From contig DISH01000004.1 in NCBI GenBank assembly GCA_002421665.1, positions 381,900-445,899 of the forward strand: a stretch of 64,000 nucleotides of DNA. The letters are read 5' to 3'. A program made the position numbers and the translations under genes. This DNA comes from Candidatus Omnitrophica bacterium UBA6215. Lineage in GTDB: Bacteria; Omnitrophota; Gorgyraeia; Pluralincolimonadales; Pluralincolimonadaceae. A model generated the notes under the pieces. It was not told the DNA's origin. It searched no databases and saw nothing but the letters and a program-made list of their open reading frames with translations. Every line of letters begins with the position of its first letter. Position 1 is the first letter of the stretch. This document shows, piece after piece, positions 24,030 through 43,494 of this stretch.

Positions 24030-24030
24030 T

Positions 24031-26380: not shown

Positions 26381-27006
26381 GAGTAAAGATATGCGGGATC
26401 ACTAATCTTACCGACGCCCAAGCCGCGTGCAGGCTTGGGGCCGATGCTATCGGTTTTATATTTACGGAGAGTCCGAGGAGGGTGAACGCCGCAAAAGTAA
26501 GGGCTATATCGGCAAAACTCCCTCCTTATGTCACTACGGTCGGGGTATTCGCCGATGAAAAAATGTCTAATGTCTTAAGGATGGCAAAAAAATGCAGGCT
26601 CGACTGTCTCCAACTGCACGGAGATGAACCGCCGGACTATTGCAGGAAGCTTAAGAAGTATTATAAAATAATAAAAGTGATAAGGGTAAAAGATGCAGGG
26701 AGCATAAACGAGGCAAGGAGTACGGATGCCGATGCGTTCCTGCTTGATGCATATATTAGCGGGAAGAAAGGCGGCACAGGAACGGTTTTTGACTGGAAAT
26801 TGGTTTCCAGGGCTAAAAGATTGGGGAAGCCTGTCATATTATCGGGCGGTTTGAATCCCGGGAACATCCGGAAGGCCGTAAAGCGGTCAAGACCTTACGC
26901 CGTCGATGTCTCCAGCGGCGTGGAAACCCGGCCCGGAAAAAAAGATATAATGCTTATGGGTGATTTCATCAGGAAAGTAAGGTCGGACAACTCAGGAAAG
27001 GAATGA
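26374..27006 (+). CDS. trpF: phosphoribosylanthranilate isomerase
   Basis: MVRVKICGIT...ADAIGFIF...LLD...GGTG. Confidence 0.9.
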   Translation: MVRVKICGITNLTDAQAACRLGADAIGFIFTESPRRVNAAKVRAISAKLPPYVTTVGVFADEKMSNVLRMAKKCRLDCLQLHGDEPPDYCRKLKKYYKIIKVIRVKDAGSINEARSTDADAFLLDAYISGKKGGTGTVFDWKLVSRAKRLGKPVILSGGLNPGNIRKAVKRSRPYAVDVSSGVETRPGKKDIMLMGDFIRKVRSDNSGKE

Positions 27007-27009
27007 TAA

Positions 27010-27552
27010 ATGAGTTCGAATAAACGCATGCACCGTCGCCTGGCGCTTGACGTAGAAGTCAAGTGGCACAGGAAAAAGGACAAATCCTCAAGCAGCAAAG
27101 CTTACATGTTAAGAAGCAAGAATTTCGCTCAACACGGGCTGTTCCTGAAGACGGACAAGAAGTTCAGGATCGGGATGGATATGGACCTCGAATTCATCCT
27201 TCCGACCATATCCCACCCCGTCTGCGTATCGGGAAAAGTTGCATGGATCGCGGACAAGGACAGAAACCCTACATATTATCCGGGCATAGGAGTAAAATTC
27301 GTTAAAATTGACCCGGAAGACAAGAAAGAACTCATGAAATTCCTTAACCGTAAGTTCCGCAATTATAAAGACGCACAGGAGCTTAAAAAAATGTACCTGA
27401 CCCTTATAGATATGGGCGCAAGGCTTGTGGAACTCGGAGAAAGGCATCCCGGAGCCATCTATTTCAAGAAGGCGGTGGATAATTCGATAAAAGAGATCTC
27501 CGAGGTGGCCCACCTTATAGACAAGGAAGTATCCGAGATTAAGAACCTTTAG
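27010..27552 (+). CDS. PilZ domain-containing protein (putative c-di-GMP receptor)
   Basis: RxxxR motif (RMHRR) near the N-terminus, N-x-A-x-x-G at the second motif position, and G-I-G-V-K-F characteristic of the PilZ C-terminal strand. Starts 4 nt after the trpF stop. Confidence 0.55.
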   Translation: MSSNKRMHRRLALDVEVKWHRKKDKSSSSKAYMLRSKNFAQHGLFLKTDKKFRIGMDMDLEFILPTISHPVCVSGKVAWIADKDRNPTYYPGIGVKFVKIDPEDKKELMKFLNRKFRNYKDAQELKKMYLTLIDMGARLVELGERHPGAIYFKKAVDNSIKEISEVAHLIDKEVSEIKNL

Positions 27553-27561
27553 GAGGTTTTT

Positions 27562-28413
27562 TTGATGAATGTATTTAAGACCGTCCTGTTCCTGAGCCTC
27601 CTTACGCTGCTTCTTATTTTCGTCGGCGACATGATAGGAGGCAGGCAAGGCATGATAATTGCTTTTGCTTTGGCCTTGGTAATGAATTTTGCATCTTACT
27701 GGTTCTCCGATAAGATAGTCCTGGCTATGTACAGGGCGAAAGAGGTGAACAGGCAAGAGTACCCCAAGCTTGCCACGATAGTCTCAAACTTATCCACGAA
27801 AGCGGGTTTACCTTTACCCAGAATTTATATTATCCCTACGCAAGCTCCCAATGCCTTCGCAACGGGCAGGGATCCTTCCCACGCAGCAGTAGCAGTGACA
27901 TCGGGTATAATGGATATCCTTTCCGACGATGAACTCGAAGGGGTTATATCCCACGAACTTTCCCACGTCAGGAACAGGGATACGCTTGTAATGACGCTTG
28001 TCGCCACCATCGCCGGCGCCATATACATGCTTTCTAATATGGCCAGGTGGGCCATGATACTCGGGGGGAGGGATGACGACAGGGAAGGCGGGAACGTGTT
28101 TGGTATACTCATAATAGCGATACTTGCCCCTATCGTGGCGACCCTTATCCAGCTGGCCATATCGCGCTCGCGCGAATATATGGCGGATGAATCCGGCGCA
28201 GGCATCAGCGGCAGGCCTCTTTCGCTTGCCAGTGCCCTCAGGAAATTGCACCAATATTCAAAACAGGTCCCGATGAACGCTAACCCTACCACCGCGCACT
28301 TATTTATTGTCAACCCGCTTACGGGCGGGGGCCTGCTTTCCCTTTTCAGTACGCATCCTCCCGTAGAGCGCAGGATAGCGCGATTGGAAGAATTCGCTAT
28401 AAGACCGAAATAA
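27562..28413 (+). CDS. htpX: membrane zinc metalloprotease HtpX (peptidase M48)
   Basis: HELSHV zinc motif (HExxH), 4 TM helices and conserved HtpX C-terminus ([14 protein letters not shown]). Confidence 0.9.
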
Positions 28414-28414
28414 G

Positions 28415-30400
28415 ATGATCCTGCCGAGCGGTCTGTTCGCCAACAAGGACCCGGTCGCAGAAGAAGGGTTCTCCTGTTCCCGTACTTTCGGAAAAGGAGG
28501 AATACTTTCAAAGGTTTTCCGGGATTATGAGTTCAGGCCGCAGCAGAAAGAGATGGCCGAATCCGTGGAAAGGGCAATCCGGGCAGCCCGCCATCTTATT
28601 GTCGAGGCCGGCACCGGGGTCGGAAAATCGTTCGCATATCTTGTGCCCGCGGCTGATTTTGCTATAAACTCAGGCAGGAAAACCGTCATATCTACCGATA
28701 CCATCAGCCTGCAGGAGCAGCTTGTAAGAAAAGACCTTCCTCTTGTTTCGAGGATACTTCCGGACGAATTTAAGTTCTGCCTGGTGAAGGGCCGGTCCAA
28801 TTATCTTTGCCTTAGGAGGCTCAACAGGGTCTTCTCCTCGAAGAATGACCTCTTCGATTCAAAACAGGAGGCCGGGGAGGTGGGTGATATACTCGCGTGG
28901 TCAAAAGTCACTACTGACGGCTCCCTATCGGACTTTGCCGCTGAACCTTCGCGCAAGGTATGGGAAAAAGTATGTTGCGAACACGATACCTGCCTGAGCA
29001 AGAAATGTCCGCACAGGAACGAATGTTTCCTTATGCAAGCCCGCCGGAACATGCAGGAATCCGACCTGATAGTCGTGAACCATCACCTGTTCTTCTCCGA
29101 CCTGGCTCTGCGCAAATCCGACTGGGCCCTGCTGCCTGATTATTCATGCGTGATATTCGATGAGGCCCATACCATCGAGGATGTCGCGACAGAACATCTG
29201 GGCTTTGAGGTATCTAATTACAAAGTAAAATATCTTTTGGACTCCCTTTACAACCCCTCAAAAAAGAAAGGGTTCCTTGTATCGGTAAAGAATAGCTCTC
29301 TTAAAAGAACGGTAACTGCTGTCCGTGAAGCTTCGGAAAATTTCTTCGCGGATATCTCGGATTGGCTTGGCGCCTACGGCGTAAAAAGGGTAAGGGAACC
29401 GGGTTTTATAGATGACACGCTATCCGGACCCATGAAAGAACTTTACGAAAGCCTTAAAAAGGCCATGAAAGGTTCCCGCTCCAAGGATGAAGAACTGGAT
29501 TTCAGGTACTATATGAATAGGCTGGAAGGATTATCCCAGGAATTGGAGATCTTCATGGACCAGAAATTGGGAGATTATGTTTATTGGTCCGAAGTATCGG
29601 GCAGCAGGTCCCGCAGGACGGCGCTCGATTGCGCTCCGGTCAATATAGCCGCGGCTCTAAGGGAAAACCTTTTCTCGAAGACAGGGACCGTGATCCTTAC
29701 AAGCGCTACCCTGTCAACCGAAGGTAATTTTGAATATATAAAGGGCAGGCTCGGCCTCGATAAGTGCTCGGAAAAACTGCTCGGTTCGCCGTTCGATTAT
29801 GAGAATAACGTCAAGATATACATTCCCAGGAACATGCCGGACCCTAACGATTATGCAAAATACAAGACGGAGGCCGTAGCCAGGATAAAGGACTATGTAT
29901 CAAGGACCGAAGGCAGGGCATTCGTCCTTTTTACCAGTTACAGGTTTATGGACGATGCCTATAATGAGACGGCTGATTTTTTCGAGAATATGGGCATCCC
30001 GATACTTAAACAGGGCGCCGGTTTGCCCAGGACGAAGATGTTGGAAGCCTTCAAGCGGGACAAGGGCTCCGTGATATTCGGGGTGGACTCTTTCTGGACA
30101 GGCGTGGACGTACCCGGTGAAGCCCTCAGCAACGTAATAATAACAAAACTTCCTTTTGCCGTGCCTGACCACCCCATATCGGAAGCCAGGATGGAAAGGA
30201 TAAAGGAGGCGGGGGGAGATCCCTTCAACATGTACAGCCTCCCGCAGGCGATACTCAAGCTCAAACAGGGTTTCGGGAGGCTTATCCGCACGAAACTCGA
30301 TACCGGCATGGTCGTCATACTCGACAGCAGGATACTCCACAAACCTTACGGAAGAAAGTTTTTGTCGGCGCTGCCTAATTGTGAGATAATAATCCAATGA
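28415..30400 (+). CDS. dinG: ATP-dependent DNA helicase, DinG/Rad3 (XPD) family with Fe-S cluster
   Basis: Walker A GTGVGKS, DEAH box (VIFDEAHTIED), four-Cys Fe-S insertion (CCEHDTCLSKKCPHRNEC) and helicase C_2 domain. Confidence 0.85.
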   Translation: MILPSGLFANKDPVAEEGFSCSRTFGKGGILSKVFRDYEFRPQQKEMAESVERAIRAARHLIVEAGTGVGKSFAYLVPAADFAINSGRKTVISTDTISLQEQLVRKDLPLVSRILPDEFKFCLVKGRSNYLCLRRLNRVFSSKNDLFDSKQEAGEVGDILAWSKVTTDGSLSDFAAEPSRKVWEKVCCEHDTCLSKKCPHRNECFLMQARRNMQESDLIVVNHHLFFSDLALRKSDWALLPDYSCVIFDEAHTIEDVATEHLGFEVSNYKVKYLLDSLYNPSKKKGFLVSVKNSSLKRTVTAVREASENFFADISDWLGAYGVKRVREPGFIDDTLSGPMKELYESLKKAMKGSRSKDEELDFRYYMNRLEGLSQELEIFMDQKLGDYVYWSEVSGSRSRRTALDCAPVNIAAALRENLFSKTGTVILTSATLSTEGNFEYIKGRLGLDKCSEKLLGSPFDYENNVKIYIPRNMPDPNDYAKYKTEAVARIKDYVSRTEGRAFVLFTSYRFMDDAYNETADFFENMGIPILKQGAGLPRTKMLEAFKRDKGSVIFGVDSFWTGVDVPGEALSNVIITKLPFAVPDHPISEARMERIKEAGGDPFNMYSLPQAILKLKQGFGRLIRTKLDTGMVVILDSRILHKPYGRKFLSALPNCEIIIQ

Positions 30401-32295
30401 TGAAGAAACACGGCGGGATAATTATAGGGCTCATTTGCGCTGTTGCCATAGCCATACCTTACTTCCTGGGGTTTTTTGAGCTTGCGGAATACCAGGGACT
30501 CGATCTCCTGTTCAAGGTACGCGGGCCAAGGCAGGTCAGCCAGGATATAGTTATCGTGGAAATAGACGACAGGGCAATAAATGATTTCGGCCGGTGGCCG
30601 TGGCCGAGAGGCTATCACGCCGAGTTCCTGGACATGATAGAAGAATTCGAGCCGAAAGCCGTCGTCTTTGATATCCTTTTCAGCGAAAAAGATGCGGAAC
30701 ACCCTGATGATGACATGCAGCTCGCTGCTATGACGAAGAAGCTGGGGAACGTATTCTTCGCCTCGTTCTTTGACTTAAGCAGTGACAAAGTTGCCAAGAG
30801 AAAGAACCTCAGGGCCCATAAGGAAACTATACCTTTCAAGATTCTGGCGGATAACGCCAGGGGATTCGGCTTCGTGAATATACTGGTGGAACCCGACGGG
30901 AAAGTAAGGAAAATACCTCTTTTTATCTCGCGTGACGGGCAGCTCAAACCCTCGATAGACATTCTTGCCGCCTCATATTTCACGGAATCGGACCCTTTTA
31001 AGCTATACGCCCCGACTGACGGAAAAGGGTTTATGTGGATCAATTATCCCGGGTCATTCGACCTTTTCAAGAAAATATCCTTCTCTGATATACCCATATC
31101 CATAGATCAGATGGAAAGAGGGGAGGAACCCGCCTTAAACCTCAATATACTCAAGGGAAAGATAGTCCTCGTTGGTTTAACCTCTACGGCATCAGAGGAT
31201 TACTGGTCGACATCTTTCTCGGCCCTATACCCCGGGGTAGGCATAAGAGCAAGCTCTATCGATACCATGCTCAGGAAAGATTATCTTTACCGCATATTCG
31301 TACCGGAGGTATGCCTTATTATCGTGGCTATAGGCCTGGCATTCGGTATCGTACTTCCGAAACGTACTCCCATGCAGGGGCTCATCTTCTTCTTTGTGAT
31401 TATTGCCGGAGTATCTGCCCTTGCAATAATAGATTTTGCGTTTTTTAACATCTGGATGGATTTTGTGTCGATAATCATCCTTTGCTTAATAGCCTATCCT
31501 GCCATAACCTTGAACCAATTCATAATAACCCGGTTCGAAAAAGGTATGATCGAGAAGGAACTGCAGATAGCCAGCCGTATACAGCAATCCATATTGCCGC
31601 AGGGCCTGCCACAGGTCCCCGGAGTGGATGTCGGCGTCAAATGCATGCCCGCGAAACATGTAGGAGGGGATTTTTACGATTTCATCAAGCTCTTCTATGA
31701 TTTTGTAAAGTTAAAAGAGGACAGGCTGGGGGTAGTAATAGGCGATGTCTCCGGCAAAGGCGTTCCTGCCGCTCTTTTTATGGCAAAATCCATGGCGGAT
31801 TTCAGAGGCATTTCCCATAATTTTAACGAAACTGACCGGGCGCTTTCCGCCATAAACGACAGGCTTACGGAAGAAGGTGTTTCAGGCATGTTCGTGACTA
31901 TGCAGTACCTGATCTATAAACCCCGGGAACGCAAGATAGAATATTCAAACGGAGGGCATAACCCGCTGGTAAAAGTAGACGCCGCAGGCAATGCCTTCCT
32001 CTTGACCCTGTCCGTGGGTACCCCTATAGGCATAATACCGGGATCTGATTTTACCTCAGACGAATTTCCGGTAGCAGCTGGAGAGCTTTTCCTGATGTAT
32101 ACTGACGGCATTTCTGAGGCAAGGGACAAGAACGGCAAGGAGTTTGGCGAAGACAGGATATTGGAAAGCGCCAAAAAATACAGGAATGGCAAAGCGCAGG
32201 AAATTGCAGATAAAATAGTAGCGGATGTCGTAGAATTCAGCAGGGGGATGCCCCAGCACGACGATATGACGGTAATCGCGCTGAAGATATTATGA
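30397..32295 (+). CDS. CHASE2 sensor domain / PP2C (SpoIIE-type) serine phosphatase membrane protein
   Basis: N-terminal TM + CHASE2 (IVIVEIDDRAINDFGRWPWPRGYHAEFL), central multi-TM block, C-terminal PP2C domain (GDFYDF, VVIGDVSGKGVPAALFMA, MYTDGISEA, HDDMTVIAL). Confidence 0.75.
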   Translation: MMKKHGGIIIGLICAVAIAIPYFLGFFELAEYQGLDLLFKVRGPRQVSQDIVIVEIDDRAINDFGRWPWPRGYHAEFLDMIEEFEPKAVVFDILFSEKDAEHPDDDMQLAAMTKKLGNVFFASFFDLSSDKVAKRKNLRAHKETIPFKILADNARGFGFVNILVEPDGKVRKIPLFISRDGQLKPSIDILAASYFTESDPFKLYAPTDGKGFMWINYPGSFDLFKKISFSDIPISIDQMERGEEPALNLNILKGKIVLVGLTSTASEDYWSTSFSALYPGVGIRASSIDTMLRKDYLYRIFVPEVCLIIVAIGLAFGIVLPKRTPMQGLIFFFVIIAGVSALAIIDFAFFNIWMDFVSIIILCLIAYPAITLNQFIITRFEKGMIEKELQIASRIQQSILPQGLPQVPGVDVGVKCMPAKHVGGDFYDFIKLFYDFVKLKEDRLGVVIGDVSGKGVPAALFMAKSMADFRGISHNFNETDRALSAINDRLTEEGVSGMFVTMQYLIYKPRERKIEYSNGGHNPLVKVDAAGNAFLLTLSVGTPIGIIPGSDFTSDEFPVAAGELFLMYTDGISEARDKNGKEFGEDRILESAKKYRNGKAQEIADKIVADVVEFSRGMPQHDDMTVIALKIL

Positions 32296-32808
32296 GAGAT
32301 GCCTTCTTTTTATCAAACGCCTCGCGCCAAGAACGGATCCGCCCGCGACAAAAAGAATTGTGCTGATCGGCTCGGGGACGGAAGTGGGGGAGCCCGCGAT
32401 ATTGAACCAGGTCGAACCTTCACCTGAATCAAGGACCTGGGAAGACCCTATCCTAAAATAATACCAATCGGCGTCAATTGTCCATTTACCCGCGTTCGAA
32501 GGGTCGGACCAGTCGTAAGTACCCGACAAGTCTATCCAGTATGTTTGCTTGAGCCCGTAGCTGCTATCTTCCGCTTTTAGCGAAGAACCCAGGTACCAAT
32601 CTGATTCAACCCTTGATGTCCAATAACCTTCCGGAGCTTCGGGAAGTTTAACATATAAATAGGGAATCTCCCCGAGCTTAAAATCCCAGTTAGGTTCGGT
32701 AGCCATCTCGCTCTTAACCGGATAGATCACTATCCCGCTGTCGGCGAAAGATATGCAGGGGAAAAGAAAAAACATAACCGCTACTGCGCTTATCAAGATC
32801 TTATTCAT
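32290..32808 (-). CDS. small secreted aromatic-rich protein with C-terminal PEP-CTERM sorting signal
   Basis: Signal peptide. C-terminus VPEP-ISTILFVAGGSVLGA-RRLIKRR matches PEP, a hydrophobic span and an Arg-rich tail. Mature part is W/Y/D/S-rich. Confidence 0.6.
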   Translation of the reverse strand: MNKILISAVAVMFFLFPCISFADSGIVIYPVKSEMATEPNWDFKLGEIPYLYVKLPEAPEGYWTSRVESDWYLGSSLKAEDSSYGLKQTYWIDLSGTYDWSDPSNAGKWTIDADWYYFRIGSSQVLDSGEGSTWFNIAGSPTSVPEPISTILFVAGGSVLGARRLIKRRHLS

Positions 32809-32865: not shown

Positions 32866-32890
32866 ATGTCAAGTTATTTTACCTTGACAT
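32866..32890. promoter_or_regulatory. palindromic operator-like site ATGTCAAG-(9 nt)-CTTGACAT overlapping the -35 box. A third TGTCAA half-site lies at 32897-32902.
   Basis: Perfect 8-bp inverted repeat read directly from the sequence, in the divergent intergenic region between the PEP-CTERM gene and the TPR-barrel gene. Confidence 0.45.
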
Positions 32891-32912
32891 AATATATGTC
32901 AAATGATATACT
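32884..32912 (+). promoter_or_regulatory. sigma70 promoter TTGACA, 17 nt spacer, TATACT, driving the TPR-barrel / giant protein / SurA-N-like cassette
   Basis: TTGACA at 32884-32889 and TATACT at 32907-32912, ~75 nt upstream of the ATG at 32986. Confidence 0.5.
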
Positions 32913-32985: not shown

Positions 32986-34503
32986 ATGCCGGTAAGGTCC
33001 AAGTCTACGGTGGTAGTTTTGGTAATTTTGTCAACGCTTTTTTCCATTATCCCTCTACAACAGGCCTGTTGCGAAACAAATCCCGACATAGAACAAGGTG
33101 TAAAACTTTACAGGCAGGAAAATTTTGATGAAGCTGTGCCCATATTACAAAAGGCCAGGAAAGAAAACCCCGATTCCTCGCTGGCCGCGTATTACCTGGG
33201 TATTACTTACAAGCAGCTTCAGGATTACAGGCAGGCCAGATCACAGCTCATTGACGCCGTCACGCTTACTCCCCGTATAAAAGAAGCTTTGGTCGAGCTG
33301 ATAGATGTAATGTACCAGCTGGGGGATTTCAAGGGAGCGAAAGAATATATTGAAATTGCAGAGAGGGAAAATATCAAACCTGCGCAGGTTGCTTTCCTTA
33401 AAGGCCTTGTCCTCCTGAAAGACGGAGAGGCAGCCGATGCCATAACAGCTTTCGAACAGGCAAAAGGCCTGGATAACTCCTTAACCCAGGCCGCTGATTA
33501 CCAAATCGGCATCGCGAATTTAAAAGAAAAGAATTATAAGGACGCCAAGAAGGTTTTCCAGGAGATAATAATACTCGATCCTAATTCCGACCTCGCGGGC
33601 CTGTCATATGAATATATGGATGCCCTGAAGCGCAAGGAGGAGGCCGAGAGGCCGTTCAGGGCCACGCTTAACGTCTCGGGCCAATACGACACTAATGTAT
33701 TGCTGAAGCCGGGAGACGATACCGTAGCTACCGGGATAACCAATGAAAGCGACTGGAGGGAAGTAACTAATTTCATGGGCCAATACAGGCAGAAGATCGG
33801 AGAAAAATTCGGCATAGACAGCCAGTATTCGATGTACTGGGCCCACCAGAACAAGATCGGCGCGTACGATGTCATGAGCCATACCGTGACGGTAACGCCC
33901 AACTATTACATAAAGAACGGGACTATCGGTGTGGCTGCCGGCTACAACTACACTGATGTCGGAGAATCCAAATATATGACTACTATTACCGCCAGCCCGG
34001 TCGTTAACTACGTTATCAGGAATAACCATATGCTTCAGGCGAATTTCAAGTACCAGAAGAAAGATTTCGCAAGGGAATCTTTCATTGACGATGAGAACAG
34101 GGATTCCAATGATTATGGCGGAGGTTTGGGCTATTTCTTTTTCTTTGCCCAGAACAAGGGTTTCTTCGGGCTGCACTATGGTTTAAATAAGGAAGATACC
34201 AAAGGGCGGAACTGGGAGTATCTCGGCAACAGGATCACCGCCACGGCATTGATACCTTTCCTTAAGAAATTCAGATTGAGTCTCGCCGGCGATGTTTTAC
34301 TCCAGGATTTCTCCAACACGAACAGTATATTTAATGTTAAACGTAATGATGAGACCTATACGGCATCTTCCATGCTCGGTTATACATTTTGGAAAGAGGC
34401 GGAACTGCAGTTCAGGTATACGTACATAAAGGACCATTCAAATATAAAAGTATATGATTATGACAGAAGCATCTACAGCGTTGGGATCGAGTATAAATTT
34501 TAA
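32986..34503 (+). CDS. outer-membrane protein with N-terminal TPR domain and C-terminal beta-barrel (Slam/DUF560-like architecture)
   Basis: Signal peptide, ~190 aa of TPR-like repeats (AAYYLGITYKQLQDYRQA..., VAFLKGLVLLKDGEAADAITAFEQA...), then ~290 aa of amphipathic beta strands ending in the canonical OMP beta-signal (IYSVGIEYKF, alternating hydrophobics, terminal Phe). Confidence 0.6.
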   Translation: MPVRSKSTVVVLVILSTLFSIIPLQQACCETNPDIEQGVKLYRQENFDEAVPILQKARKENPDSSLAAYYLGITYKQLQDYRQARSQLIDAVTLTPRIKEALVELIDVMYQLGDFKGAKEYIEIAERENIKPAQVAFLKGLVLLKDGEAADAITAFEQAKGLDNSLTQAADYQIGIANLKEKNYKDAKKVFQEIIILDPNSDLAGLSYEYMDALKRKEEAERPFRATLNVSGQYDTNVLLKPGDDTVATGITNESDWREVTNFMGQYRQKIGEKFGIDSQYSMYWAHQNKIGAYDVMSHTVTVTPNYYIKNGTIGVAAGYNYTDVGESKYMTTITASPVVNYVIRNNHMLQANFKYQKKDFARESFIDDENRDSNDYGGGLGYFFFFAQNKGFFGLHYGLNKEDTKGRNWEYLGNRITATALIPFLKKFRLSLAGDVLLQDFSNTNSIFNVKRNDETYTASSMLGYTFWKEAELQFRYTYIKDHSNIKVYDYDRSIYSVGIEYKF

Positions 34504-34520: not shown

Positions 34521-37500
34521 ATGAAGAAATTTTGCGTAAAACTACTGGCCCTGGTAACGGTAATGGGAGGGATATTCCTTACCTGTTCACCGTATTCTCT
34601 CGCGGATGTTATCGGAAAAATATCCGCTACCGAGGGAAGGGTTGACCTGTTGAAATCCGGCGGCGATACCGCCTCCGAAGTCAGGGTCGGTGATTGCGTA
34701 TCCTCAGGGGACATACTAAGGACCAAGAGCGGATCCAAGGCGGAGATCGCCTTTACCGATACGTCCGTAGTCAGGTTATCCGAAAACACCAGGCTGGAGA
34801 TCACAGATTACGGTTTTGGTCCAGGCGGAAAAAGAGCTGACGCTGCCCTTTTTCTTGATAGGGGCAAGATCAGAGCTATACTCTCAAGATCAGCGGAAGG
34901 GAGCTTCGTGATCAACACCCCTAACGCTGCCGGAGCGGTAAAAGGTACGGATATAGTGGCGATATACCAGAGGTCTTCGACCTCAATCGCCGCGCTCAAC
35001 GGCAAAGTTTTGGTCTCAGGAATGTCACCCTCAGGTAAACCGGTTGAACTGACAAGCGGTCAAACATCCGTAATCTCCGGAGAGACAGCTCCAAGCGCGC
35101 CCAGAATACTGCTTTCCATGGAGATTAAAGCGCACGAATCAGATACGGGAATATCCAAAGGATCTATGGCGGCGGAAAAATCTTCCGATGATAAGATGAC
35201 TGCTGAAGGTTATAGCGCACCCGATGGTATGAAAGCCGTAGTAACAAAAACCGCCGGCGGCGTAAGGATAAAGAACCGCGGATCAATAACGTGGCATGAC
35301 GCCAGAGAAAATGAAGTCCTCGCCGCGGGTGATTCCGTAGAAACTAAGGATAACGGAAAGATAGAGATAAGACTTGAGAACGGTAACGTAATAACATTGC
35401 AGCAGAACTCCAGCCTTATAATTCAAAAACTTTCATCCGACAGCAAGACCGGCAATTACGAGAACCTTCTTGAGTCCGGCGGCGGAAAACTCCGGGCCCA
35501 GGTACAGAAGATAAAGGGCAATTCGAAGTTCGAGGTCAAGACCCCTAATGCAGTTGCTTGCGTTCGCGGTACGATAATGTACCTGAACATATTACCTGGC
35601 CTGACAAACTCATATTTCGAAGAAGGCAACGGAACGCTTCGAAATCTAATCTCGGGGACAGTAAAAGACGTCCCTATCGGAACGGGCGCTGCCGCGGACG
35701 GCAATGGTAATATATCGGACCCGGTCCCGCCAAGCGATGACCAGAAATCGCAATGGCACCAGGGTTGGGATGTCGGCGGTGAAGCCGAAGGCTATTCAGC
35801 TCCTTCCGGGGACTTGGGTCAGGGCGGCGACTCAGACAACAACAGCGGAGATACAGGTTTCCAGAACGTCGTTTTCGACGAAAAACCGGTAACGGATATT
35901 ATCGGCACTACGGAGAGCGGGGGCGGTCCGGGCGGCAGCGAAGGCGAAGGGGGCATAACTAACCCCTATATAACAGGAACTTCATCCGGCAGTTTCGGGT
36001 TCGTCGAACCGGACGAGTATAATAATTTTGACGCTGTTCTCTCCAGCAACACCGTATTATCTTCGCCGTGGGCCGGGCAACTCGATCTTCACGTAAGCGG
36101 CGAATTCATGAGTCCGGGATACAGGATATTCGAAGGCAATATCACCGCTGCGAGCGTTGATGGAGGTACGTCCTTCGGATGGGTAGGCGGCATAATGCAC
36201 AGTTGGGAAGGAATATTATCTTCTATATATATAGATCCTTCCGGCAGGGCAGGCAACCTGTTCGGGTATTTATCCGGTACGAACACCGTAGAAACCGGGA
36301 CCGGATCCTATTACGGCGATTTCTCGGGCAGCGGTGATATTTTTGTTATCCAGATGGCTCAATTAGAGGCTGGCATCGAGTATCCGGTAGAATACGGTGA
36401 AGGATATGGTGACCTGCGCTTGGCTTTCAATAACGGGAACGGCTTGTTCTACGCTGATTTCGACAGGCAGCTGGCCAGGATAGAGGGACAGGATTGGGGG
36501 ATCTGGAGGGATGCTTACCGCGGGAGTTATTATAATCCGGATAATTTGAATGAATGGATCGGAAATGCAGGCGGCCGTTACGGAGAAAAAGGTTATTTCT
36601 TCGCGACTGTCGAAGGCATTGACGATCTTGAGGGCGGAGTCAGGATGGACATGACCGGCGCCTATCTGGATATGTATACGCTTGGGGCATACTACGGCTC
36701 TATTCTCGCCGGCTATGGAGAAGGAACGGAAGGAATCGGGTTGGGCGGATATACTGAAGAAGCCCTTACCTCCAGCGCAATACACGGAAACTACAGTTAT
36801 TCGGGACAATTAAGCGGCATTTTAGGCACTACAGGCTCGCTTTGGTCTGGCAGTCCGTTCTATCTGACATCCATAGGCAATCTTGAGGATGAGTACGATG
36901 GCGAATTTGATAATTTTATATGGTATACCGATTTCATAAGCACCGACAACGATAACGAAAGATATACGGCCTACTCGGCGGAAGAAGGAATAGGCTCTTA
37001 CTACGGCACTACCTCAGGCGTAGGCAAAGACAACACCATGAAGGGGTTCAGCAGGTTCATCTATATAGATCCCTCCGGGTATGCCGGAGTATTCAAGGGA
37101 AGTGTTGACGGCGCTTATTCGCAGGCAATAGGCATGTATATTTTTGACGGAAAGGCCGCAAGAGATACCTCGGTGGATCCAGTGTTTGTAAGCCTGTCCC
37201 CGGAAGCCCTCAACTATTCCATATGGCTTAATTCCGGCGAAGGTAACCTTGAGGGTTATTATTCGGATGGAGGGCGCGTATATGGTTATGACAACCTCTA
37301 TTCAGCCTCAATCGCCGATTTCGGGAACGGGACAGCCCAGAACTGGGGTATTTATAACCAGCGGATAATCGGACAATCCTACATGGAACTCGCGGACGAC
37401 TTTTCCGCTAAGATGGGCGGCAAAGACAGTTTTGGTTGTTATAATCCTACGATAATGCACTATAATACATATAATTCCGGCGACGGGGCCTCTTATAGCT

Positions 37501-40500
37501 GCGAATATTCGGAAAATAACAGGTACGGGTATTCTTACAGGTACGAACCGGGCCCGGACACATATAAGTATACCTATACTTATTATTACGCGGACGGCAC
37601 AACATACACGAACACATGCATTTATGACAGCGGCTGGAATTACCTTTCCGGCGACGGGGTATATGATACTTGGGATACTTCATCTTCTTTAGCGGACCTG
37701 TTAAGCGCGGCACCGGAAGGCTACAGCCTTTCATCTGAAAGCTCATATTCTTATGCCGAAAATGATTACGGCTTTTGGATAGCCGATGTGAACGCTTCCG
37801 GAAGCGATTGGTTTGACGGGACTCTTAACGGCGCGTTCATTACATATACAAAGATGGGCCTGATGCAGGGTGATCTCACCGGTTCATATACAGATGATAC
37901 CGGCGGGTGGATAGCCGCCGGCTCAGGCACTTGGAATGGCAACCGGCTTACCATGAGCGGCATGTGGGGTGAGGACACAAGTAGTCTGTACGAGAACAGT
38001 TACGGATATCCGTCCTTAGCCGGTGAAGAATACGGGCTTCTCGGCTCTACGGTCGAGGAGTGGTGGAATAAAACCTCTTTCCCTGTATTGGCGATGGGCA
38101 GATACTATTCTTACGGCACGGACGATCAGCCTATAATCTGGATAACACCGTTCAACAGCTATAACGCCGAGATGGATAACCATACCTCTCTCGACGGTTC
38201 AGCGTTCTACGGTCTTACCGCGGGCATATGGAAAGACGGCTTGATGTCGGACGCAAAGGCTGTTGCAATATACGCTGCCCCGGATGGAAGTATGGGTATA
38301 ATCAAGGGAAACCTTGGCGGAGAATACTATCCGGGTCTGGATATGTGGATGGCAACCGGATCTTTGTCCGCCCTGCAAAAAAGCGGAGAATCAATAGACC
38401 CGGCATCCCTTTACGAGAGTATAACTACCTCGGATATGCCGTATTTATACGCCGGGGGTTCGATTGATGGAGCGGTCGTTTACGGTGAATCTTCCGACGG
38501 ATACTTATATTCAGTCGACGAAGGTCAGTGGGGCATATTTGATTTCAAGACCGGCGGCAACTATAACGACGAATGGGTTGAATCCAAAGAGAAGGGCCTT
38601 GCCTTCGGATTCACGGACGGTCTTTACGGGCCTTCCATGCTCCTGACATCGACCGACGCGTCCGTCGGTGACGGTACCATCGCCGGCACTCTTTCCGGAT
38701 CTTGCATAGACCTTCTCGAAGGAACTATAAGCAAGCTGAACGGCGATATCCGCGGAATTTACGACAGCGATAATAATACCTGGATCGCCGCGGCCATCGG
38801 CGAATGGGAAAAGAAATTACTCGCCTACAGCGGTGTCGTAATGGAAGGCGGGTTCGGTTATTTTTACGGCGAAAACGAAGGACCTTATCTGGATGACGGC
38901 GGGCTTGACGCGATAATGGGCGGCTCCGACGACCTCTTTGACGGTTCAGCCGAGATCTCGATAGTCGGGAACGCGTGGAACCCGGACTACAATGAGGATT
39001 GGACGGGCGACGATAAGCTGTGGGCAGGCGATTTCTTCATAACTACCGACGATAACGCCGCAGCCACGGGTACGATAGGAGGTACCAGCCTGAACAACAG
39101 CTTCAAAGGCGCTTTGCTTGGTCTGTACATCCGCCAGACGCAGGACGGTTACAAAGCAGGATATATAACTTCTTCCGACGCCTTCGGGAACCGCGACTTC
39201 CTTTCGGGGAATTTCTATCCGTCATTATCAATGTTCAGCGCCGAAGGCAGCCTAACGGCTTTCATGGATACTCCTACGGAATTCACGCCGGAAGATATAC
39301 TTTTTGGCAATGAATCCGCTTTGCTGAGCGATGACTTCTATGACCCGATCGTCGGGGACCTCAACGGCGACCTTTACGGTGAGGACCTCCAGATAGCGGA
39401 CCAACAGTGGGGAGTCTGGCGCGCGGGATGCGGCGGTTGGCTCGATTCCGTCCCGGCCGGCAATTGGAATTCTTACATAGCCGAAAGCTTTGAAGACCAA
39501 TACGGGGAATATTCGTTCCCGTATTATTCACTCATCTATATCGACGGAACCACTACCGCGGACAACGGGCTTGAGGCCGTTATACACGGTTACGACCTCG
39601 GTATGACATACCTAAGCGAGGCTTCGGGGTTGATGGCCGGCGATTATGATACCGGCGAGATGAGATGGGAAGGCCTTAGTTTGGGGACTTGGGTTGAGAA
39701 GGAATTAACTCTCAGCGGACTCGCCTCCGGGGGAATAAGAGCCGCCGGAGACTGGGATAACTGGTTTGACCCGGGCGACAGTTATGAAGACTTCTCCGGA
39801 GAATTCTCCGGTATAATAGGATCTACGCAGACCGGATGGCAGGACGGAAGTTTTAAGGCCGTAGCAATGGGTGATTATGCGATCAACGAGTCCGCCAATT
39901 CATACCTGCTCAACGCTGAAATGGGAAGTTTTAATGCACGCGAGATATCTCCGGTTACCCTCGACGGGGAAGGTGCTTTCTACGGGTTTGCCCACGCGGC
40001 TGTCGGAGATTCTGCCGATGGCAGGCTGACGGATACCGCTTCGGGATTGAGGCTGGCCGCCATATATATAGCTTCTAACGGGACCGGCGGCTATAATGCG
40101 GGAGTGCTAAGGGGCGGGCTTGACATGGATCTAGTGGAGATCCCCTACGACGGTGAAGTCGGCATGTGGATAGCCGAAGGCTACCTGACCCCTTACGCAA
40201 TGGAAACCGATATCGGCATCTCTCCGGAAGAACTACCGGATTATATATCCTGGGACTGGGAAGTGCTCGGTGCTTCGGGTGTCGGCTCGTTCTCAAACGG
40301 CGGCGCCATCCAGGCCGATTACTTTACCGGGGACACGATGTCCATAGAAGGCTACGACCAGTGGGGGATAATGCAGGCTGCCCTTACCGGACAAACATCC
40401 TCGGTCGTAGATTCGGATTGGAGATTGGCCTTGGGAGGCGCTTCTTATACCGACGATTCGCATGAGATTGCGGACGGTTATTTCCTTATCTCGGCCGGCG

Positions 40501-41126
40501 GAGATTCCTGGTCGAACAACGTATTTGACGGGACCTTCAGGGGCGTATACTTGAGCGAGATAGACGAAAATACCTTTAACGTCGGAAAGATAGAAGGTGA
40601 TGTCGTAGGCAATTACCAGCAGGTTGAAGGGGTAGATACCGTCTTCCAGGCACAGATGCTCGGAGAATGGGTAGATCTTGCGGAATTGAGCACGGATGTG
40701 CTTGGATTCAATAACGATGCGTTAGCCGAGATGGTCCAGATACCCGTCACGGAAACCTATACAGCGCTTCTGCAGGGTGCCGGCGGATTCGGACCCGCCG
40801 GGGATATCGGGGCTATAACATCCAATATGGACATAAGCTTCTATGCCCAGCAGGCAACCGACCTCAGCGGCATATGGGCTGCCCTGATAAACGGGAACTA
40901 CTCCGGGTATACCGGAAGCGACAATTGGTCTGTCAATTATTCCAATAACGGCGTTAACGCCACGCTTACGGGTACGCAGTGGAATGACGGACAATGGCTC
41001 GCGAACGTATCCGGAAATAACGGAAATTCTACATTTACCGGACAGGCGGGCGGCACCTATACCGGCACAGACAGCGGTACTTTTGATGGTGCAGGCGCCG
41101 GGACATGGAACACCCCGACTCCGTAA
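34521..41126 (+). CDS. giant (2201 aa) secreted protein with tandem N-terminal FecR domains and a ~1700-aa Gly/Tyr/Asp/Ser/Thr/Trp-rich degenerate-repeat region
   Basis: Sec signal (cleavage after SLA). First FecR-like domain at ~aa 35-160 (...FVINTPNAAGAVKGTDI) and second at ~aa 245-360 (...FEVKTPNAVACVRGTIMYL). The rest has extreme composition, almost no K or R, and recurring IYIDPSG.G..G and (Q/D)WG(I/V)(W/F) motifs. SD GAGGAG 7 nt upstream, 17 nt after the upstream gene. Confidence 0.7.
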   Translation: MKKFCVKLLALVTVMGGIFLTCSPYSLADVIGKISATEGRVDLLKSGGDTASEVRVGDCVSSGDILRTKSGSKAEIAFTDTSVVRLSENTRLEITDYGFGPGGKRADAALFLDRGKIRAILSRSAEGSFVINTPNAAGAVKGTDIVAIYQRSSTSIAALNGKVLVSGMSPSGKPVELTSGQTSVISGETAPSAPRILLSMEIKAHESDTGISKGSMAAEKSSDDKMTAEGYSAPDGMKAVVTKTAGGVRIKNRGSITWHDARENEVLAAGDSVETKDNGKIEIRLENGNVITLQQNSSLIIQKLSSDSKTGNYENLLESGGGKLRAQVQKIKGNSKFEVKTPNAVACVRGTIMYLNILPGLTNSYFEEGNGTLRNLISGTVKDVPIGTGAAADGNGNISDPVPPSDDQKSQWHQGWDVGGEAEGYSAPSGDLGQGGDSDNNSGDTGFQNVVFDEKPVTDIIGTTESGGGPGGSEGEGGITNPYITGTSSGSFGFVEPDEYNNFDAVLSSNTVLSSPWAGQLDLHVSGEFMSPGYRIFEGNITAASVDGGTSFGWVGGIMHSWEGILSSIYIDPSGRAGNLFGYLSGTNTVETGTGSYYGDFSGSGDIFVIQMAQLEAGIEYPVEYGEGYGDLRLAFNNGNGLFYADFDRQLARIEGQDWGIWRDAYRGSYYNPDNLNEWIGNAGGRYGEKGYFFATVEGIDDLEGGVRMDMTGAYLDMYTLGAYYGSILAGYGEGTEGIGLGGYTEEALTSSAIHGNYSYSGQLSGILGTTGSLWSGSPFYLTSIGNLEDEYDGEFDNFIWYTDFISTDNDNERYTAYSAEEGIGSYYGTTSGVGKDNTMKGFSRFIYIDPSGYAGVFKGSVDGAYSQAIGMYIFDGKAARDTSVDPVFVSLSPEALNYSIWLNSGEGNLEGYYSDGGRVYGYDNLYSASIADFGNGTAQNWGIYNQRIIGQSYMELADDFSAKMGGKDSFGCYNPTIMHYNTYNSGDGASYSCEYSENNRYGYSYRYEPGPDTYKYTYTYYYADGTTYTNTCIYDSGWNYLSGDGVYDTWDTSSSLADLLSAAPEGYSLSSESSYSYAENDYGFWIADVNASGSDWFDGTLNGAFITYTKMGLMQGDLTGSYTDDTGGWIAAGSGTWNGNRLTMSGMWGEDTSSLYENSYGYPSLAGEEYGLLGSTVEEWWNKTSFPVLAMGRYYSYGTDDQPIIWITPFNSYNAEMDNHTSLDGSAFYGLTAGIWKDGLMSDAKAVAIYAAPDGSMGIIKGNLGGEYYPGLDMWMATGSLSALQKSGESIDPASLYESITTSDMPYLYAGGSIDGAVVYGESSDGYLYSVDEGQWGIFDFKTGGNYNDEWVESKEKGLAFGFTDGLYGPSMLLTSTDASVGDGTIAGTLSGSCIDLLEGTISKLNGDIRGIYDSDNNTWIAAAIGEWEKKLLAYSGVVMEGGFGYFYGENEGPYLDDGGLDAIMGGSDDLFDGSAEISIVGNAWNPDYNEDWTGDDKLWAGDFFITTDDNAAATGTIGGTSLNNSFKGALLGLYIRQTQDGYKAGYITSSDAFGNRDFLSGNFYPSLSMFSAEGSLTAFMDTPTEFTPEDILFGNESALLSDDFYDPIVGDLNGDLYGEDLQIADQQWGVWRAGCGGWLDSVPAGNWNSYIAESFEDQYGEYSFPYYSLIYIDGTTTADNGLEAVIHGYDLGMTYLSEASGLMAGDYDTGEMRWEGLSLGTWVEKELTLSGLASGGIRAAGDWDNWFDPGDSYEDFSGEFSGIIGSTQTGWQDGSFKAVAMGDYAINESANSYLLNAEMGSFNAREISPVTLDGEGAFYGFAHAAVGDSADGRLTDTASGLRLAAIYIASNGTGGYNAGVLRGGLDMDLVEIPYDGEVGMWIAEGYLTPYAMETDIGISPEELPDYISWDWEVLGASGVGSFSNGGAIQADYFTGDTMSIEGYDQWGIMQAALTGQTSSVVDSDWRLALGGASYTDDSHEIADGYFLISAGGDSWSNNVFDGTFRGVYLSEIDENTFNVGKIEGDVVGNYQQVEGVDTVFQAQMLGEWVDLAELSTDVLGFNNDALAEMVQIPVTETYTALLQGAGGFGPAGDIGAITSNMDISFYAQQATDLSGIWAALINGNYSGYTGSDNWSVNYSNNGVNATLTGTQWNDGQWLANVSGNNGNSTFTGQAGGTYTGTDSGTFDGAGAGTWNTPTP
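36140..41090 (+). repeat. in-frame degenerate protein-level tandem repeat (about 6 units of ~250-350 aa) inside the giant ORF
   Basis: Module A copies: SIYIDPSGRAGNLFGY, FIYIDPSGYAGVFKGS, AIYAAPDGSMGIIKGN, SLIYIDGTTTADNG, AAIYIASNGTGGYNAG. Module B copies: QDWGIWRDAYRG, QNWGIYNQRIIG, GQWGIFDFKTGG, QQWGVWRAGCGG, DQWGIMQAALTG, LSGIWAALINGN. They alternate at roughly regular spacing. Confidence 0.4.
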
Positions 41127-41416
41127 TGATACGTTATATAGCCCTGGTGTCAATTCTGGCTATTTTATTTCCCGGTTGCGGGAAGCCGGCCGCTAATCCG
41201 GCTTCCGCGCAGCCCGCGCCAAGGGTGCTCGCGACGGTTAACGGCGAACCTATATCCGATAAAGACCTGAAACTTTCCCTTGCCATACGCCTTATGGATG
41301 ATCCAGATTTCAAGGTAACTCCTTCCACTAAGAACGAACAGATACAGATGATCATCGACGAACGCCTGGAACTGCAGCGCAAGGACAGGGCTTCTTCGGA
41401 CATTAAGATATTCTGA
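41126..41416 (+). CDS. small lipoprotein/periplasmic protein with SurA N-terminal-like chaperone motif
   Basis: Start codon overlaps the giant ORF stop (TAATG). Signal MIRYIALVSILAILFPGC followed by VLATVNGEPISDKDLKLSLAIRL..., resembling the SurA/PpiD N-terminal domain. Only ~96 aa. Confidence 0.45.
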   Translation: MIRYIALVSILAILFPGCGKPAANPASAQPAPRVLATVNGEPISDKDLKLSLAIRLMDDPDFKVTPSTKNEQIQMIIDERLELQRKDRASSDIKIF

Positions 41417-41509: not shown

Positions 41510-42700
41510 GTGAAACTGCCCGATAAGAAAGGCCATTTCGGCGTTTTCGGAGGAAAGTATGTCCCGGAAACCCTGATGGCGGCCCTGGAAGAGCTTGAGG
41601 CGGAATATTCCGCCGCTAAAAACAACAGAAGGTTTGCCGAGAAATTCCGTTATTACCTGGAAGCATACGCCGGCAGGCCGAGCGGTCTTTATTTTGCCGA
41701 AAAATTGACCAAAACCCTTAAGGGCCCAAAAATATACCTGAAGAGGGAAGACCTGCTGCATACCGGTTCCCATAAAATAAACAATACCCTGGGCCAAGGT
41801 CTGCTTACCGTACGCATGGGGAAGAAAAGGATAATTGCCGAAACCGGCGCCGGACAGCACGGCGTAGCCACCGCGACCGTAGCGGCTCTCTTCGACCTTG
41901 ATTGCGAGGTATTTATGGGAGAAGAAGACATTCGCCGGCAGGCCCTTAACGTCTTCAGGATGAAACTCCTGGGCGCGAAAGTCACTCCGGTCACAAGCGG
42001 CAGCAAGACGCTGAAGGACGCTATGAACGAAACGATGAGGGACTGGGTCACTAATGTGCGCGCCACCCATTATTGCATCGGATCGGTCGCCGGGCCGCAT
42101 CCGTTCCCAATGATGGTAAGGGATTTCCAGTCGGTTATCGGAAAAGAGACGCGGCGCCAAATACTAAAAGCAGAAGGCAGGCTCCCCGACTATCTTATTG
42201 CCTGCGTGGGAGGCGGGTCTAATTCCATGGGGCTCTTCTATGATTTCCTTGACGACAGGAAGGTTAATTTTATAGGGGTTGAGGCCGCGGGCAAGGGCTT
42301 GAATACAGGCCTGCACGCAGCCACTCTGGAAAAGGGCGATATCGGCGTGCTCCACGGCAGTAAGAGTTATCTGCTGCAAGACGACTTTGGACAGATAAAG
42401 ATAGCGCACTCGGTATCCGCCGGGCTGGATTATCCCGGAGTAGGCCCGGAACACTCATTTTTCAAGGACGCGGGCAGGGCAAAGTATGTATCGGCCACGG
42501 ACACGGAGGCATTGGAAGCTTTCCGTCTTCTTTCAGAGACTGAAGGTATAATACCGGCCCTTGAGTCGTCGCACGCCATAGCTTACCTCATAAAAGCGGC
42601 CAAAAAGATGAAAAAAAGCGACCTTGCGGTAGTCTGCTTGTCGGGCAGGGGCGATAAGGACGTGGACATGGTCTCGCAGGTCCTCGCAGACAAAATATGA
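41510..42700 (+). CDS. trpB: tryptophan synthase beta chain
   Basis: GTG start. [14 protein letters not shown] and [12 protein letters not shown]-lysine motif. GGGSNS. Confidence 0.95.
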
Positions 42701-43494
42701 ACAGAATAGATAAGAAATTCTCCGATCTCAGGAAAAACGGCAGGAAGGCCCTTATAGCCTTCTTTACGGCAGGTGACTTCGGGCTCACGGCCACGAAAAA
42801 ATTCGTCATTGAATTCGAACAGAGGGGCGTAGATATCATTGAGCTGGGCGTCCCTTTTTCGGACCCCGTTGCTGACGGACCTACTATACAGTCTTCCTCT
42901 GAAAGGTCCCTGAAAAGGGGCACAAGGCTCAAGGACATAATATCCCTCGTCGGGCAACTGCGAAAGAAAACCCAGATACCCATAGTCCTGATGGGTTACT
43001 ATAACCCTATACTCAAATACGGCCCCGCCAGGTTCATTTCAGACTGCGTAAAGAACGGCGTTGACGGTGCGATAATCCCTGATCTGCCCCCCGAAGAATC
43101 TGGTGAATTGACGGCGGCGGCAAAAGGCAGGAATTTCGACATAATATTCTTCCTGAGCCCGACAAGCTCCCTCAAGAGGATAAAGATGGTCTCCGGGATG
43201 ACCAGGGGTTTTATCTACTACGTTTCCCTTACGGGAATCACCGGGGCAAGGTCTTCATTGCCCGCCGGGTTCGCTGCACGAGTAAAGTTGATAAAAAAAA
43301 CCTCCGATAAACCGGTGTGTGTCGGTTTTGGAGTCTCGATGCCGGAACAGGCAAAGCGCATCAGCGCCGTAGCTGACGGTGTTATCGTGGGTTCGGCTAT
43401 AGTAAAACAGATGGAAAAGAATTCCTCGAATAAGAAGTTCGTAAAGAATGTAGGCAATTATGTCCATAAACTTGCGGAGGCTACCCATCAATAA
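42697..43494 (+). CDS. trpA: tryptophan synthase alpha chain
   Basis: ATGA overlap with trpB. TrpA motifs ([30 protein letters not shown]). Confidence 0.93.

Follow-up and report, generated by a model that had tools for sequence, protein, structure and literature searches.

The window analysed in this study is a stretch of 64,000 nucleotides from Candidatus Omnitrophica bacterium UBA6215 (contig DISH01000004.1), in which a giant gene at positions 34521-41126 on the + strand encodes a protein of 2201 amino acids. The giant protein begins with two tandem FecR domains, which are followed by five diverged repeat units and a conserved C-terminal domain, and structural models suggest that the part after the FecR domains forms eleven small β-barrels. 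Judged by their sequences, the unit of about 285 amino acids and the terminal barrel are a new domain family with no match in Pfam, NCBIfam or the PDB. A gene for an outer-membrane protein composed of TPR repeats and a β-barrel lies directly upstream of the giant gene, and a gene for a CHASE2 membrane sensor is located nearby. Based on this context, we propose that the giant protein probably serves at the cell surface as an antenna or adhesin that is coupled to signalling.

Repeat units of the giant protein

An original prediction, made from the DNA letters and their open reading frames (ORFs), had described an ancient, heavily diverged repeat with two alternating motif families and about six copies. 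Five positions were found for each motif, one per unit half. Motif A (IYIDPSG-like) is located at about residues 568, 846, 1243, 1534 and 1847 and motif B (WGI[WYFM]) at residues 659, 942, 1337, 1630 and 1948, and the two strictly alternate, marking the first and the second half of each unit, respectively. The five occurrences of motif B compare with 0.13 expected from composition-preserving shuffles (maximum 3 in 2000). The internal periodicity was also evident in a self-alignment by BLASTP, in which segments of the protein matched one another in register over 180-280 residues with 22-32% identity and E values from 1e-9 to 1e-4. When hidden Markov models (HMMs) built from four units were used to score the fifth, scores of 11-38 bits were obtained, while none of 200 shuffles per unit gave more than 5 bits, and the HMM from all five units detected units in nine independent homologues with E values from 1e-17 to 1e-47. 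The shuffles and the leave-one-out HMMs ruled out a compositional artefact as the source of the repeats, and confirmed that the repeats are real. Within the giant protein the units are 20-28% identical to one another, whereas they are 40-55% identical to the colinear unit of an orthologue, suggesting that the units are old. Hence the ancient and diverged character of the repeat was borne out, but its copy number is five rather than six. No tandem repeat at the DNA level was found within the giant gene.

The unit HMM placed unit 1 at 35928-36755 (residues 470-745), unit 2 at 36765-37964 (residues 749-1148), unit 4 at 38826-39695 (residues 1436-1725) and unit 5 at 39759-40673 (residues 1747-2051), all on the + strand. 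The leave-one-out scores were 15.5 bits for unit 1, 11.4 bits for unit 4 and 38.3 bits for unit 5, with shuffle maxima of 3.9, 4.7 and 5.0 bits, respectively. Unit 3, which was chosen for structure prediction, occupies 37965-38810 on the same strand (residues 1149-1430). The typical unit length is about 285 amino acids, and the spacing of unit 2 is 397 amino acids because its second half contains a Tyr-rich insert of about 105 amino acids (37443-37760, + strand, residues ~975-1080). The insert sits between FGCY and DYGFWI, corresponding to the conserved elements FG[AC]Y and GYW[LI], and the unit resumes as ...DYGFWIADV. It follows the pattern Y.Y..G..Y.Y.Y..N.YGY...YTYYY.DGT...GTWD, and homologous inserts are present in the homologues P0001, P0002, P0004 and P0005.

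The giant gene is an intact ORF with an ATG start, and a Shine-Dalgarno-like AGAGGAG is found 8 nt before the ATG. Residues 1-28 (34521-34604, + strand) read as a Sec-type signal peptide, MKKFCVKLLALVTVMGGIFLTCSPYSLA, with the putative cleavage site in front of DV, and equivalent N-termini were seen in homologues. The two FecR domains extend over residues 29-200 and 201-420 (34605-35780, + strand). Pfam FecR (PF04773) matched them in two stretches with 92 bits against a cut-off of 24, the best of which covers residues 65-163, and the protein is therefore a FecR-domain protein with the tandem arrangement that had been predicted. The NCBIfam models for Lsa33, LipL45, Lsa19 and LapA retention gave matches below their cut-offs, all within the first ~360 residues. 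Nothing matched outside the FecR region in the Pfam and NCBIfam scans of the giant protein, in agreement with the earlier statement that the repeat belongs to no recognised family such as Rhs/YD, VCBS, cadherin or Big. A linker rich in Gly, Ser, Asp and Asn (residues 421-469; 35781-35927, + strand) separates the FecR domains from the envelopes of the unit HMM.

Residues 431-2201 consist of 15.5% Gly, 7.4% Tyr, 8.5% Asp, 9.5% Ser and 2.8% Trp, with only 1.5% Lys, 1.7% Arg and 0.3% Cys, which also agrees with the composition noted at first sight. There are 250 acidic residues (Asp and Glu) and 57 basic residues in this region, giving a net charge of -193, and its grand average of hydropathicity (GRAVY) is -0.30. 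The acidic charge and the richness in Gly, Tyr and Trp are kept throughout the family described below.

Predicted fold of the units and of the C-terminal domain

Unit 3 was modelled by AlphaFold2 from an alignment of 22 units. The resulting model is all-β, with a mean predicted local distance difference test (pLDDT) of 87.3 and a predicted template modelling score (pTM) of 0.87; across the models of the repeat unit and of the C-terminal domain, the pLDDT was 87 and 85. About 17 antiparallel strands, mostly of 10-14 residues, form two blocks divided by one short helix. Motif A falls in the first block, within the hairpin that strands 93-104 and 110-122 form, and motif B in the second block, within strand 190-201. 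The simplest reading of the model is a pair of eight-stranded meander barrels, which match modules A and B. An alignment of the two unit halves by hhalign gave a weak in-register match (E 2e-3), so that a common origin of halves A and B is possible.

The conserved C-terminal domain (40674-41123, + strand, residues 2052-2201, 150 amino acids) was common to all homologues first found. Its model contains one helix and exactly eight meander strands, and is read as an eight-stranded β-barrel; a match between this domain and half B (E 3e-9) was discarded as evidence of relatedness, because it consists of 31 columns that overlap the last strands of unit 5. The structural neighbours of the models were eight-stranded barrels only. 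They included outer-membrane barrels and designs (PcoB, OmpW, the N-terminal domain of OprF, NspA, OmpA and de novo barrels) as well as cargo of type 11 secretion (hemophilin, the lobes of TbpB and LbpB, and the HpuA barrel).

The barrels could themselves be membrane-inserted like OmpA or OmpW, making the giant protein a polyprotein of transmembrane barrels assembled by the β-barrel assembly machinery (BAM). A composition rich in Gly, Tyr and Trp and poor in Lys and Arg is indeed typical of outer-membrane proteins. However, the giant protein ends in ...NTPTP, with no terminal aromatic β-signal, unlike its outer-membrane neighbour, whose last residues are ...EYKF. The large excess of Asp and Glu and the negative GRAVY value also argue against insertion, and the pTM of the unit model suggests two tightly packed barrels per unit, which would be hard to square with independent insertion. 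We regard membrane-inserted barrels as very improbable.

A β-roll or β-helix had been suggested as a fold to look for, and the antiparallel meander barrels of the AlphaFold2 models spoke for a different one. Together with RTX and Rhs/YD repeats, these folds were rejected, since they gave no profile match and the giant protein contains no GGxGxD motif. PDB profile searches with the unit alignment and with the C-terminal alignment gave nothing significant, so the remote homology search proposed for one unit left the repeat without a known relative in the PDB. One borderline match connected the last strands of the second unit half (positions 242-283, 42 positions) with the ricin-type xylan-binding CBM13 domain 1knl (E 0.0011) and also with the designed protein ThreeFoil. 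It was taken as a motif-level coincidence, probably due to a G...G....TWQ-like motif, and not as a shared fold.

Distribution and conservation of the family

Homologues were collected by a word-indexed search of 5.8 billion proteins and then by an exhaustive profile search of 1.84 billion cluster representatives. The word-indexed homologue searches returned 9, 23 and 1 proteins. Every one of the nine relatives has an N-terminal FecR domain, and the five with a named source came from metagenome-assembled genomes (MAGs) of Candidatus Omnitrophota (three) and Syntrophales (one). In the profile search, 607 proteins were recovered with E ≤1e-3, and 353 with E ≤1e-30, with up to 20 matched stretches and up to 6991 amino acids per protein. 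Among 159 family representatives, comprising the best 150 of the 607 profile matches and the earlier matches, the FecR domain is N-terminal in 115, many of the remainder being fragments, and 141 end with the C-terminal domain. The number of units varies from 1 to about 18. The Tyr-rich insert is optional; an HMM of the insert detected 60 copies in 36 of the 159 representatives, with at most six per protein. The architecture FecR-(A-B)n-C-terminal barrel is therefore a conserved hallmark of the family. The largest member, P0010, with 6991 amino acids, has about 17-18 double-barrel units and about 35 barrels, and the same FecR start and C-terminal barrel.

A genomic scan of one genome per GTDB species yielded 34 loci, all of them in MAGs or single-cell genomes. 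They belong to Syntrophales, Syntrophorhabdaceae, Smithella, Desulfobacterales and other Thermodesulfobacteriota, to Omnitrophota, and to Thermodesulfovibrionales and Nitrospira, so the family is found in uncultured Omnitrophota, Desulfobacterota (Syntrophales and relatives) and Nitrospirota. FecR is not mentioned in the papers on giant genes of Omnitrophota.

Conservation is uneven along the protein. Compared to the orthologues P0001 and P0002, the second FecR domain is 64-65% identical, the units are 39-52% identical, and the C-terminal barrel is the best-conserved part with 65-71% identity; the orthologue P0003 has no unit 2 at all. Conserved ends with a variable middle fit conserved interactions at both ends and an extendable middle. 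The high conservation of the second FecR domain suggests that it has a specific partner in the periplasm, and a terminal barrel that is both best conserved and nearly universal fits a role in targeting or anchoring.

The outer-membrane partner

The predicted partner of the giant protein is encoded at 32986-34503 on the + strand. It has 505 amino acids, with a signal peptide, a TPR region of ~200 residues and a barrel of ~280 amino acids, and its stop codon is 17 nt before the start of the giant gene. Directly upstream and on the same strand, the partner gene was found in 23 of the 25 distinct loci with a visible 5' end, across three phyla, the exceptions being L008 and L019. The presence of such a dedicated barrel-forming partner suggests passage of the giant protein through the outer membrane or anchoring in it.

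TPR families matched the partner in the window with E values down to 1e-19. Its barrel matched DUF2860 with 24-26 bits (cut-off 22.9), and BBP2_2 and TPR_Slam were below their cut-offs. When 17 orthologous partner barrels were scanned alone against Pfam, matches were obtained to BBP2_2 (15 of 17, best E 1.5e-8), DUF2860 (8 of 17, best E 9.8e-7), OMP_b-brl (6 of 17, best E 7.2e-5) and SlipAM, the barrel of Slam and type 11 secretion (3 of 17, best E 5.2e-9). At L025 the SlipAM match covered the full length of the model and, with 24.5 bits, exceeded the cut-off of 22. TPR_Slam matched 17 of 19 orthologues, all below the cut-off. PDB profile searches with the partner barrel gave no matches. The polysaccharide secretins PgaA and BcsC also consist of TPR repeats and a barrel, and they showed only weak matches to the partner at the level of the TPR. 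The architecture of the partner appears to be Slam-like. In three loci, two FecR-barrel genes were found in tandem behind one TPR outer-membrane gene (L016, 2-12583; L023, 2530-13234; L026, 2223-13249), and in L023 and L026 two CHASE2 genes follow ~2 kb downstream.

The giant protein could also be wholly periplasmic, acting as a scaffold or ruler that joins the inner-membrane CHASE2 sensor to the TPR domain of the partner, or as a periplasmic ligand-binding array, with no surface exposure. Its Sec signal and the lack of a recognisable outer-membrane targeting signal at its C-terminus would agree with this, as would the classically periplasmic location of FecR domains and the orientation of TPR domains of outer-membrane proteins towards the periplasm. 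Likewise, SMc02177, a FecR-domain protein of the Clr regulon of Sinorhizobium meliloti, is predicted to be extracytoplasmic (PMC5498481). However, with 11 barrels, and up to ~35 in P0010, the chain would greatly exceed the width of the periplasm, and the strong conservation of the barrel at the extreme C-terminus and the near-constant pairing with a barrel-forming partner also speak against it. A purely periplasmic protein therefore seems unlikely.

CHASE2 and the gene neighbourhood

The loci were scanned with profiles built from the proteins of the window. In the window, a candidate signalling partner of the giant protein is a CHASE2 membrane sensor of 632 amino acids with a SpoIIE-type PP2C domain, which is encoded at 30397-32295 on the + strand (Pfam CHASE2, E 4.8e-50; SpoIIE, E 2.7e-48). 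Ten loci from three phyla have a CHASE2 gene next to the module. CHASE2-PP2C is upstream in three Omnitrophota loci (the window, L003 and L018), and CHASE2 fused to an adenylate/guanylate cyclase domain (Guanylate_cyc) is downstream in seven loci of Desulfobacterota and Nitrospirota (L023, L025, L026, L027, L029, L031 and L036). Such an association, seen in three phyla, upstream as well as downstream and with two output domains, is hard to put down to chance. The link is frequent and not universal.

Chaperone-like genes were found on the other side of the giant gene. A small lipoprotein-like ORF of 103 amino acids (41105-41416, + strand), overlapping the end of the giant gene by 22 nt, shows a weak similarity to the N-terminal part of SurA (12.7 bits, far below the cut-off), and is possibly a periplasmic chaperone. 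This ORF is conserved downstream in L003 and L018. Longer SurA-like homologues of 265-273 amino acids, with similarity to SurA_N and rotamase, occur in further loci. In L015 such a gene follows the giant gene directly, in L022 and L028 it is 0.7-2 kb away, and in L032 it lies upstream of the giant gene and on the opposite strand; the copy in L028 passes SurA_N_2 with 28.8 bits against a cut-off of 28.5. In addition, a gene for an OmpH/Skp chaperone is downstream of the Syntrophales homologue. Taken together, the outer-membrane partner, CHASE2 and the chaperone-like context suggest an envelope protein that has an outer-membrane partner and a link to signalling, rather than a free S-layer.

The idea of the original prediction, a structural surface fibre, adhesin or S-layer-like coat, has to be weighed against this context. 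If it applied, the outer-membrane protein would only export or anchor the giant protein, CHASE2 would be unrelated, and the acidic aromatic barrels would bind surfaces, minerals, polysaccharide, host cells or prey cells. Such a role would explain the conserved net charge and Gly/Tyr/Trp richness, as well as a number of units that varies as in many adhesins, and it is consistent with the lack of CHASE2 in about half of the well-flanked loci. The Leptospira FecR proteins Lsa33 and Lsa19, whose models match the FecR region below the cut-off, are annotated as adhesins. On the other hand, the recurrence of CHASE2 described above argues against an unrelated neighbour, the cluster of CHASE2, FecR and TPR genes recurs in unrelated bacteria (PMC9239204), and the second FecR domain is conserved in a way that points to a particular partner in the periplasm. 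A purely structural fibre is thus rather unlikely in our judgement, and so is binding of this kind as its sole function. An adhesin or surface role as such is compatible with the findings.

The gene order of the window is trpE, trpD, trpC, trpF, PilZ, M48 peptidase, DinG-like helicase, CHASE2-PP2C and PEP-CTERM (on the - strand), followed by the TPR and barrel outer-membrane gene, the giant gene, the SurA-N-like ORF, trpB and trpA. The identical order was observed in another Omnitrophota genome (L003/L004), in which the giant protein is 47% identical. In both genomes the trp operon is split; in the window its parts are located at 22551-27006 (trpE, D, C and F) and 41510-43494 (trpB and A), with a block of ~14.5 kb in between. 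The PilZ gene (of the cyclic di-GMP receptor family), the M48 peptidase gene and the DinG-like helicase gene occupy 27010-30400, upstream of CHASE2-PP2C, and L003 has the same order. The PP2C domain of CHASE2-PP2C weakly resembles SiaA, a biofilm-regulating phosphatase. The PEP-CTERM-like secreted protein (172 amino acids, 32290-32808, - strand) carries a sorting signal at its C-terminus (VPEP...RRLIKRR), scored 18.2 bits with TIGR02595 against a cut-off of 16, and is conserved in L003. An element found by a consensus scan lies at 32884-32912 on the + strand, with 11 of 12 matches, and is a pattern match only.

Proposed function

We tentatively favour the reading that the giant protein is the FecR arm of a CHASE2-FecR-TPR envelope module, enlarged to a beads-on-a-string fibre that would serve as a surface adhesin-antenna for outside-in signalling. 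After export by Sec, periplasmic chaperones (SurA-like in the window, Skp in Syntrophales) would keep the giant protein unfolded. Its C-terminal barrel would be recognised by the partner outer-membrane protein, which would then translocate the acidic barrel array or anchor it at the cell surface, in the way that Slam/type 11 systems handle cargo with a C-terminal barrel. The FecR modules would remain in the periplasm, in contact with the TPR domain, the CHASE2 domain or both. Binding to the external fibre, or strain on it, could then be relayed to the output of CHASE2, which would be the PP2C phosphatase in Omnitrophota and a cyclase forming cyclic AMP in Desulfobacterota and Nitrospirota.

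Several points weigh against this proposal. The architecture, the family and the synteny are the observations, from which we infer the localisation, the export route and the signalling. About nine other well-flanked loci (about half), including all those of Syntrophales, have no CHASE2 gene in their flanks. In the Pfam scan SlipAM did not match the partner barrel of the window, and the partner orthologues favour BBP2_2 and DUF2860 (15 and 8 of 17) over SlipAM (3 of 17). The TbpBBD and lipoprotein C cargo families of Pfam did not match the giant protein, even with E up to 1. To our knowledge, all type 11 secretion systems described so far are from Proteobacteria, and their cargo is far smaller.

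Should the proposed relay exist, it would explain the role of the widespread CHASE2-FecR-TPR clusters. A more specific version, which we consider doubtful, is that the system is the first Slam-like export outside Proteobacteria, with a chain of barrels that is tethered by a FecR plug and reports surface contact to CHASE2. If this is true, the widespread sensor domain CHASE2 would have a physical mechanism of input, and the system of Omnitrophota could be a candidate sensor of contact with host or prey. Even if only the structural reading were true, the giant proteins would still be a new family of envelope fibres. Several hundred giant proteins of uncultured anaerobes are characterised by the unit and the terminal barrel, and their near-obligate pairing with the partner points to a candidate route for giant β-rich proteins to or across the outer membrane in phyla without a known type 11 system. 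The repeated presence of CHASE2 as a neighbour also connects this poorly understood sensor domain with a specific partner outside the cytoplasm.

Comparison with known systems

OmpA, OmpW and NspA are embedded barrels with a C-terminal aromatic β-signal, and the giant protein does not belong with them by this definition. Like FecA-FecR-FecI, the window combines a periplasmic FecR module with an adjacent outer-membrane barrel and allows the idea of a signal relay across the envelope. However, the giant protein has neither a cytoplasmic anti-sigma domain nor a transmembrane helix; it has a cleavable signal peptide, with FecR starting at about residue 30. No gene for an extracytoplasmic function (ECF) sigma factor or a TonB-dependent receptor was found near the giant gene, where the neighbours are the helicase, CHASE2-PP2C, the TPR outer-membrane protein and trp genes, and an anti-sigma FecR is thus not indicated.

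The adhesins LapA and MpIBP are giant repetitive surface proteins, as is proposed for the giant protein, and the N-terminal FecR-like module of the giant protein could plug in the periplasm as theirs does. The NCBIfam model retention_LapA matched residues 31-97 with E 5.6e-10 and 39.6 bits against a cut-off of 50. In contrast to LapA adhesins, the giant protein has a Sec signal and no RTX repeats with GGxGxD, and no component of type 1 secretion (ATP-binding cassette transporter, membrane-fusion protein or TolC-like protein) was found among the neighbouring genes scanned.

Type 11 secretion relies on an outer-membrane protein with periplasmic TPR repeats and a 14-stranded DUF560/SlipAM barrel, and on an adjacent gene for a cargo that has a Sec signal and ends in an eight-stranded barrel; TbpB, LbpB, fHbp, HpuA and hemophilin are examples of Slam cargo (PMC8406197, PMC12282271). 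The partner in the window also has an N-terminal TPR region, with a barrel of ~280 amino acids, the gene of a putative cargo with a Sec signal adjoins it (17 nt away in the window and adjacent in 23 of 25 loci), and the giant protein ends in a predicted eight-stranded barrel. TbpB, too, has a duplicated barrel. The differences are that the partner barrel of the window falls below the cut-off of SlipAM (PF04575), with its orthologues leaning to BBP2_2 and DUF2860; that the cargo of the giant family would be 230-700 kDa with 11-35 barrels; that it carries FecR and is linked to CHASE2 signalling; and that the phyla of the family are outside Proteobacteria. In its gene context and predicted structure the pair of giant protein and partner resembles type 11 systems, but it does not match their cargo-barrel sequence families.

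A precedent for the proposed function may be NsrA of Sinorhizobium meliloti, an outer-membrane protein which is reported to relay an external protein signal to the CHASE2 cyclases CyaK and CyaD (PMC7529298, PMC13001267). By analogy, an outer-membrane protein with acidic exposed parts would signal to inner-membrane CHASE2 enzymes in both cases. NsrA differs in that it is described as a single protein with its β-barrel portion in the membrane.

The module of the window resembles the cluster of CHASE2, FecR and TPR genes noted in Campylobacterota, where the output is an adenylate cyclase accompanied by a phosphodiesterase (PMC9239204); an operon of LysM-FecR and a CHASE2 histidine kinase, 'BiofilmReg', has been described in Burkholderia (PMC5192318). 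In the window the three genes are adjacent (30397-32295, 32986-34503 and 34521-41126), and the trio recurs in L003, L018, L023, L025, L026, L027, L029, L031 and L036, of which the Desulfobacterota and Nitrospirota members also have an adenylate/guanylate cyclase as output. The window differs from the known cluster in its output, which is SpoIIE/PP2C and not adenylate cyclase, and in a TPR protein that carries its own outer-membrane barrel. Its FecR protein has five double-barrel units (1 to about 18 in the family) and a terminal barrel, none of which is mentioned in the cited descriptions. We therefore describe the module of the window as the known CHASE2-FecR-TPR cluster in a giant variant, which may be linked to type 11 secretion.

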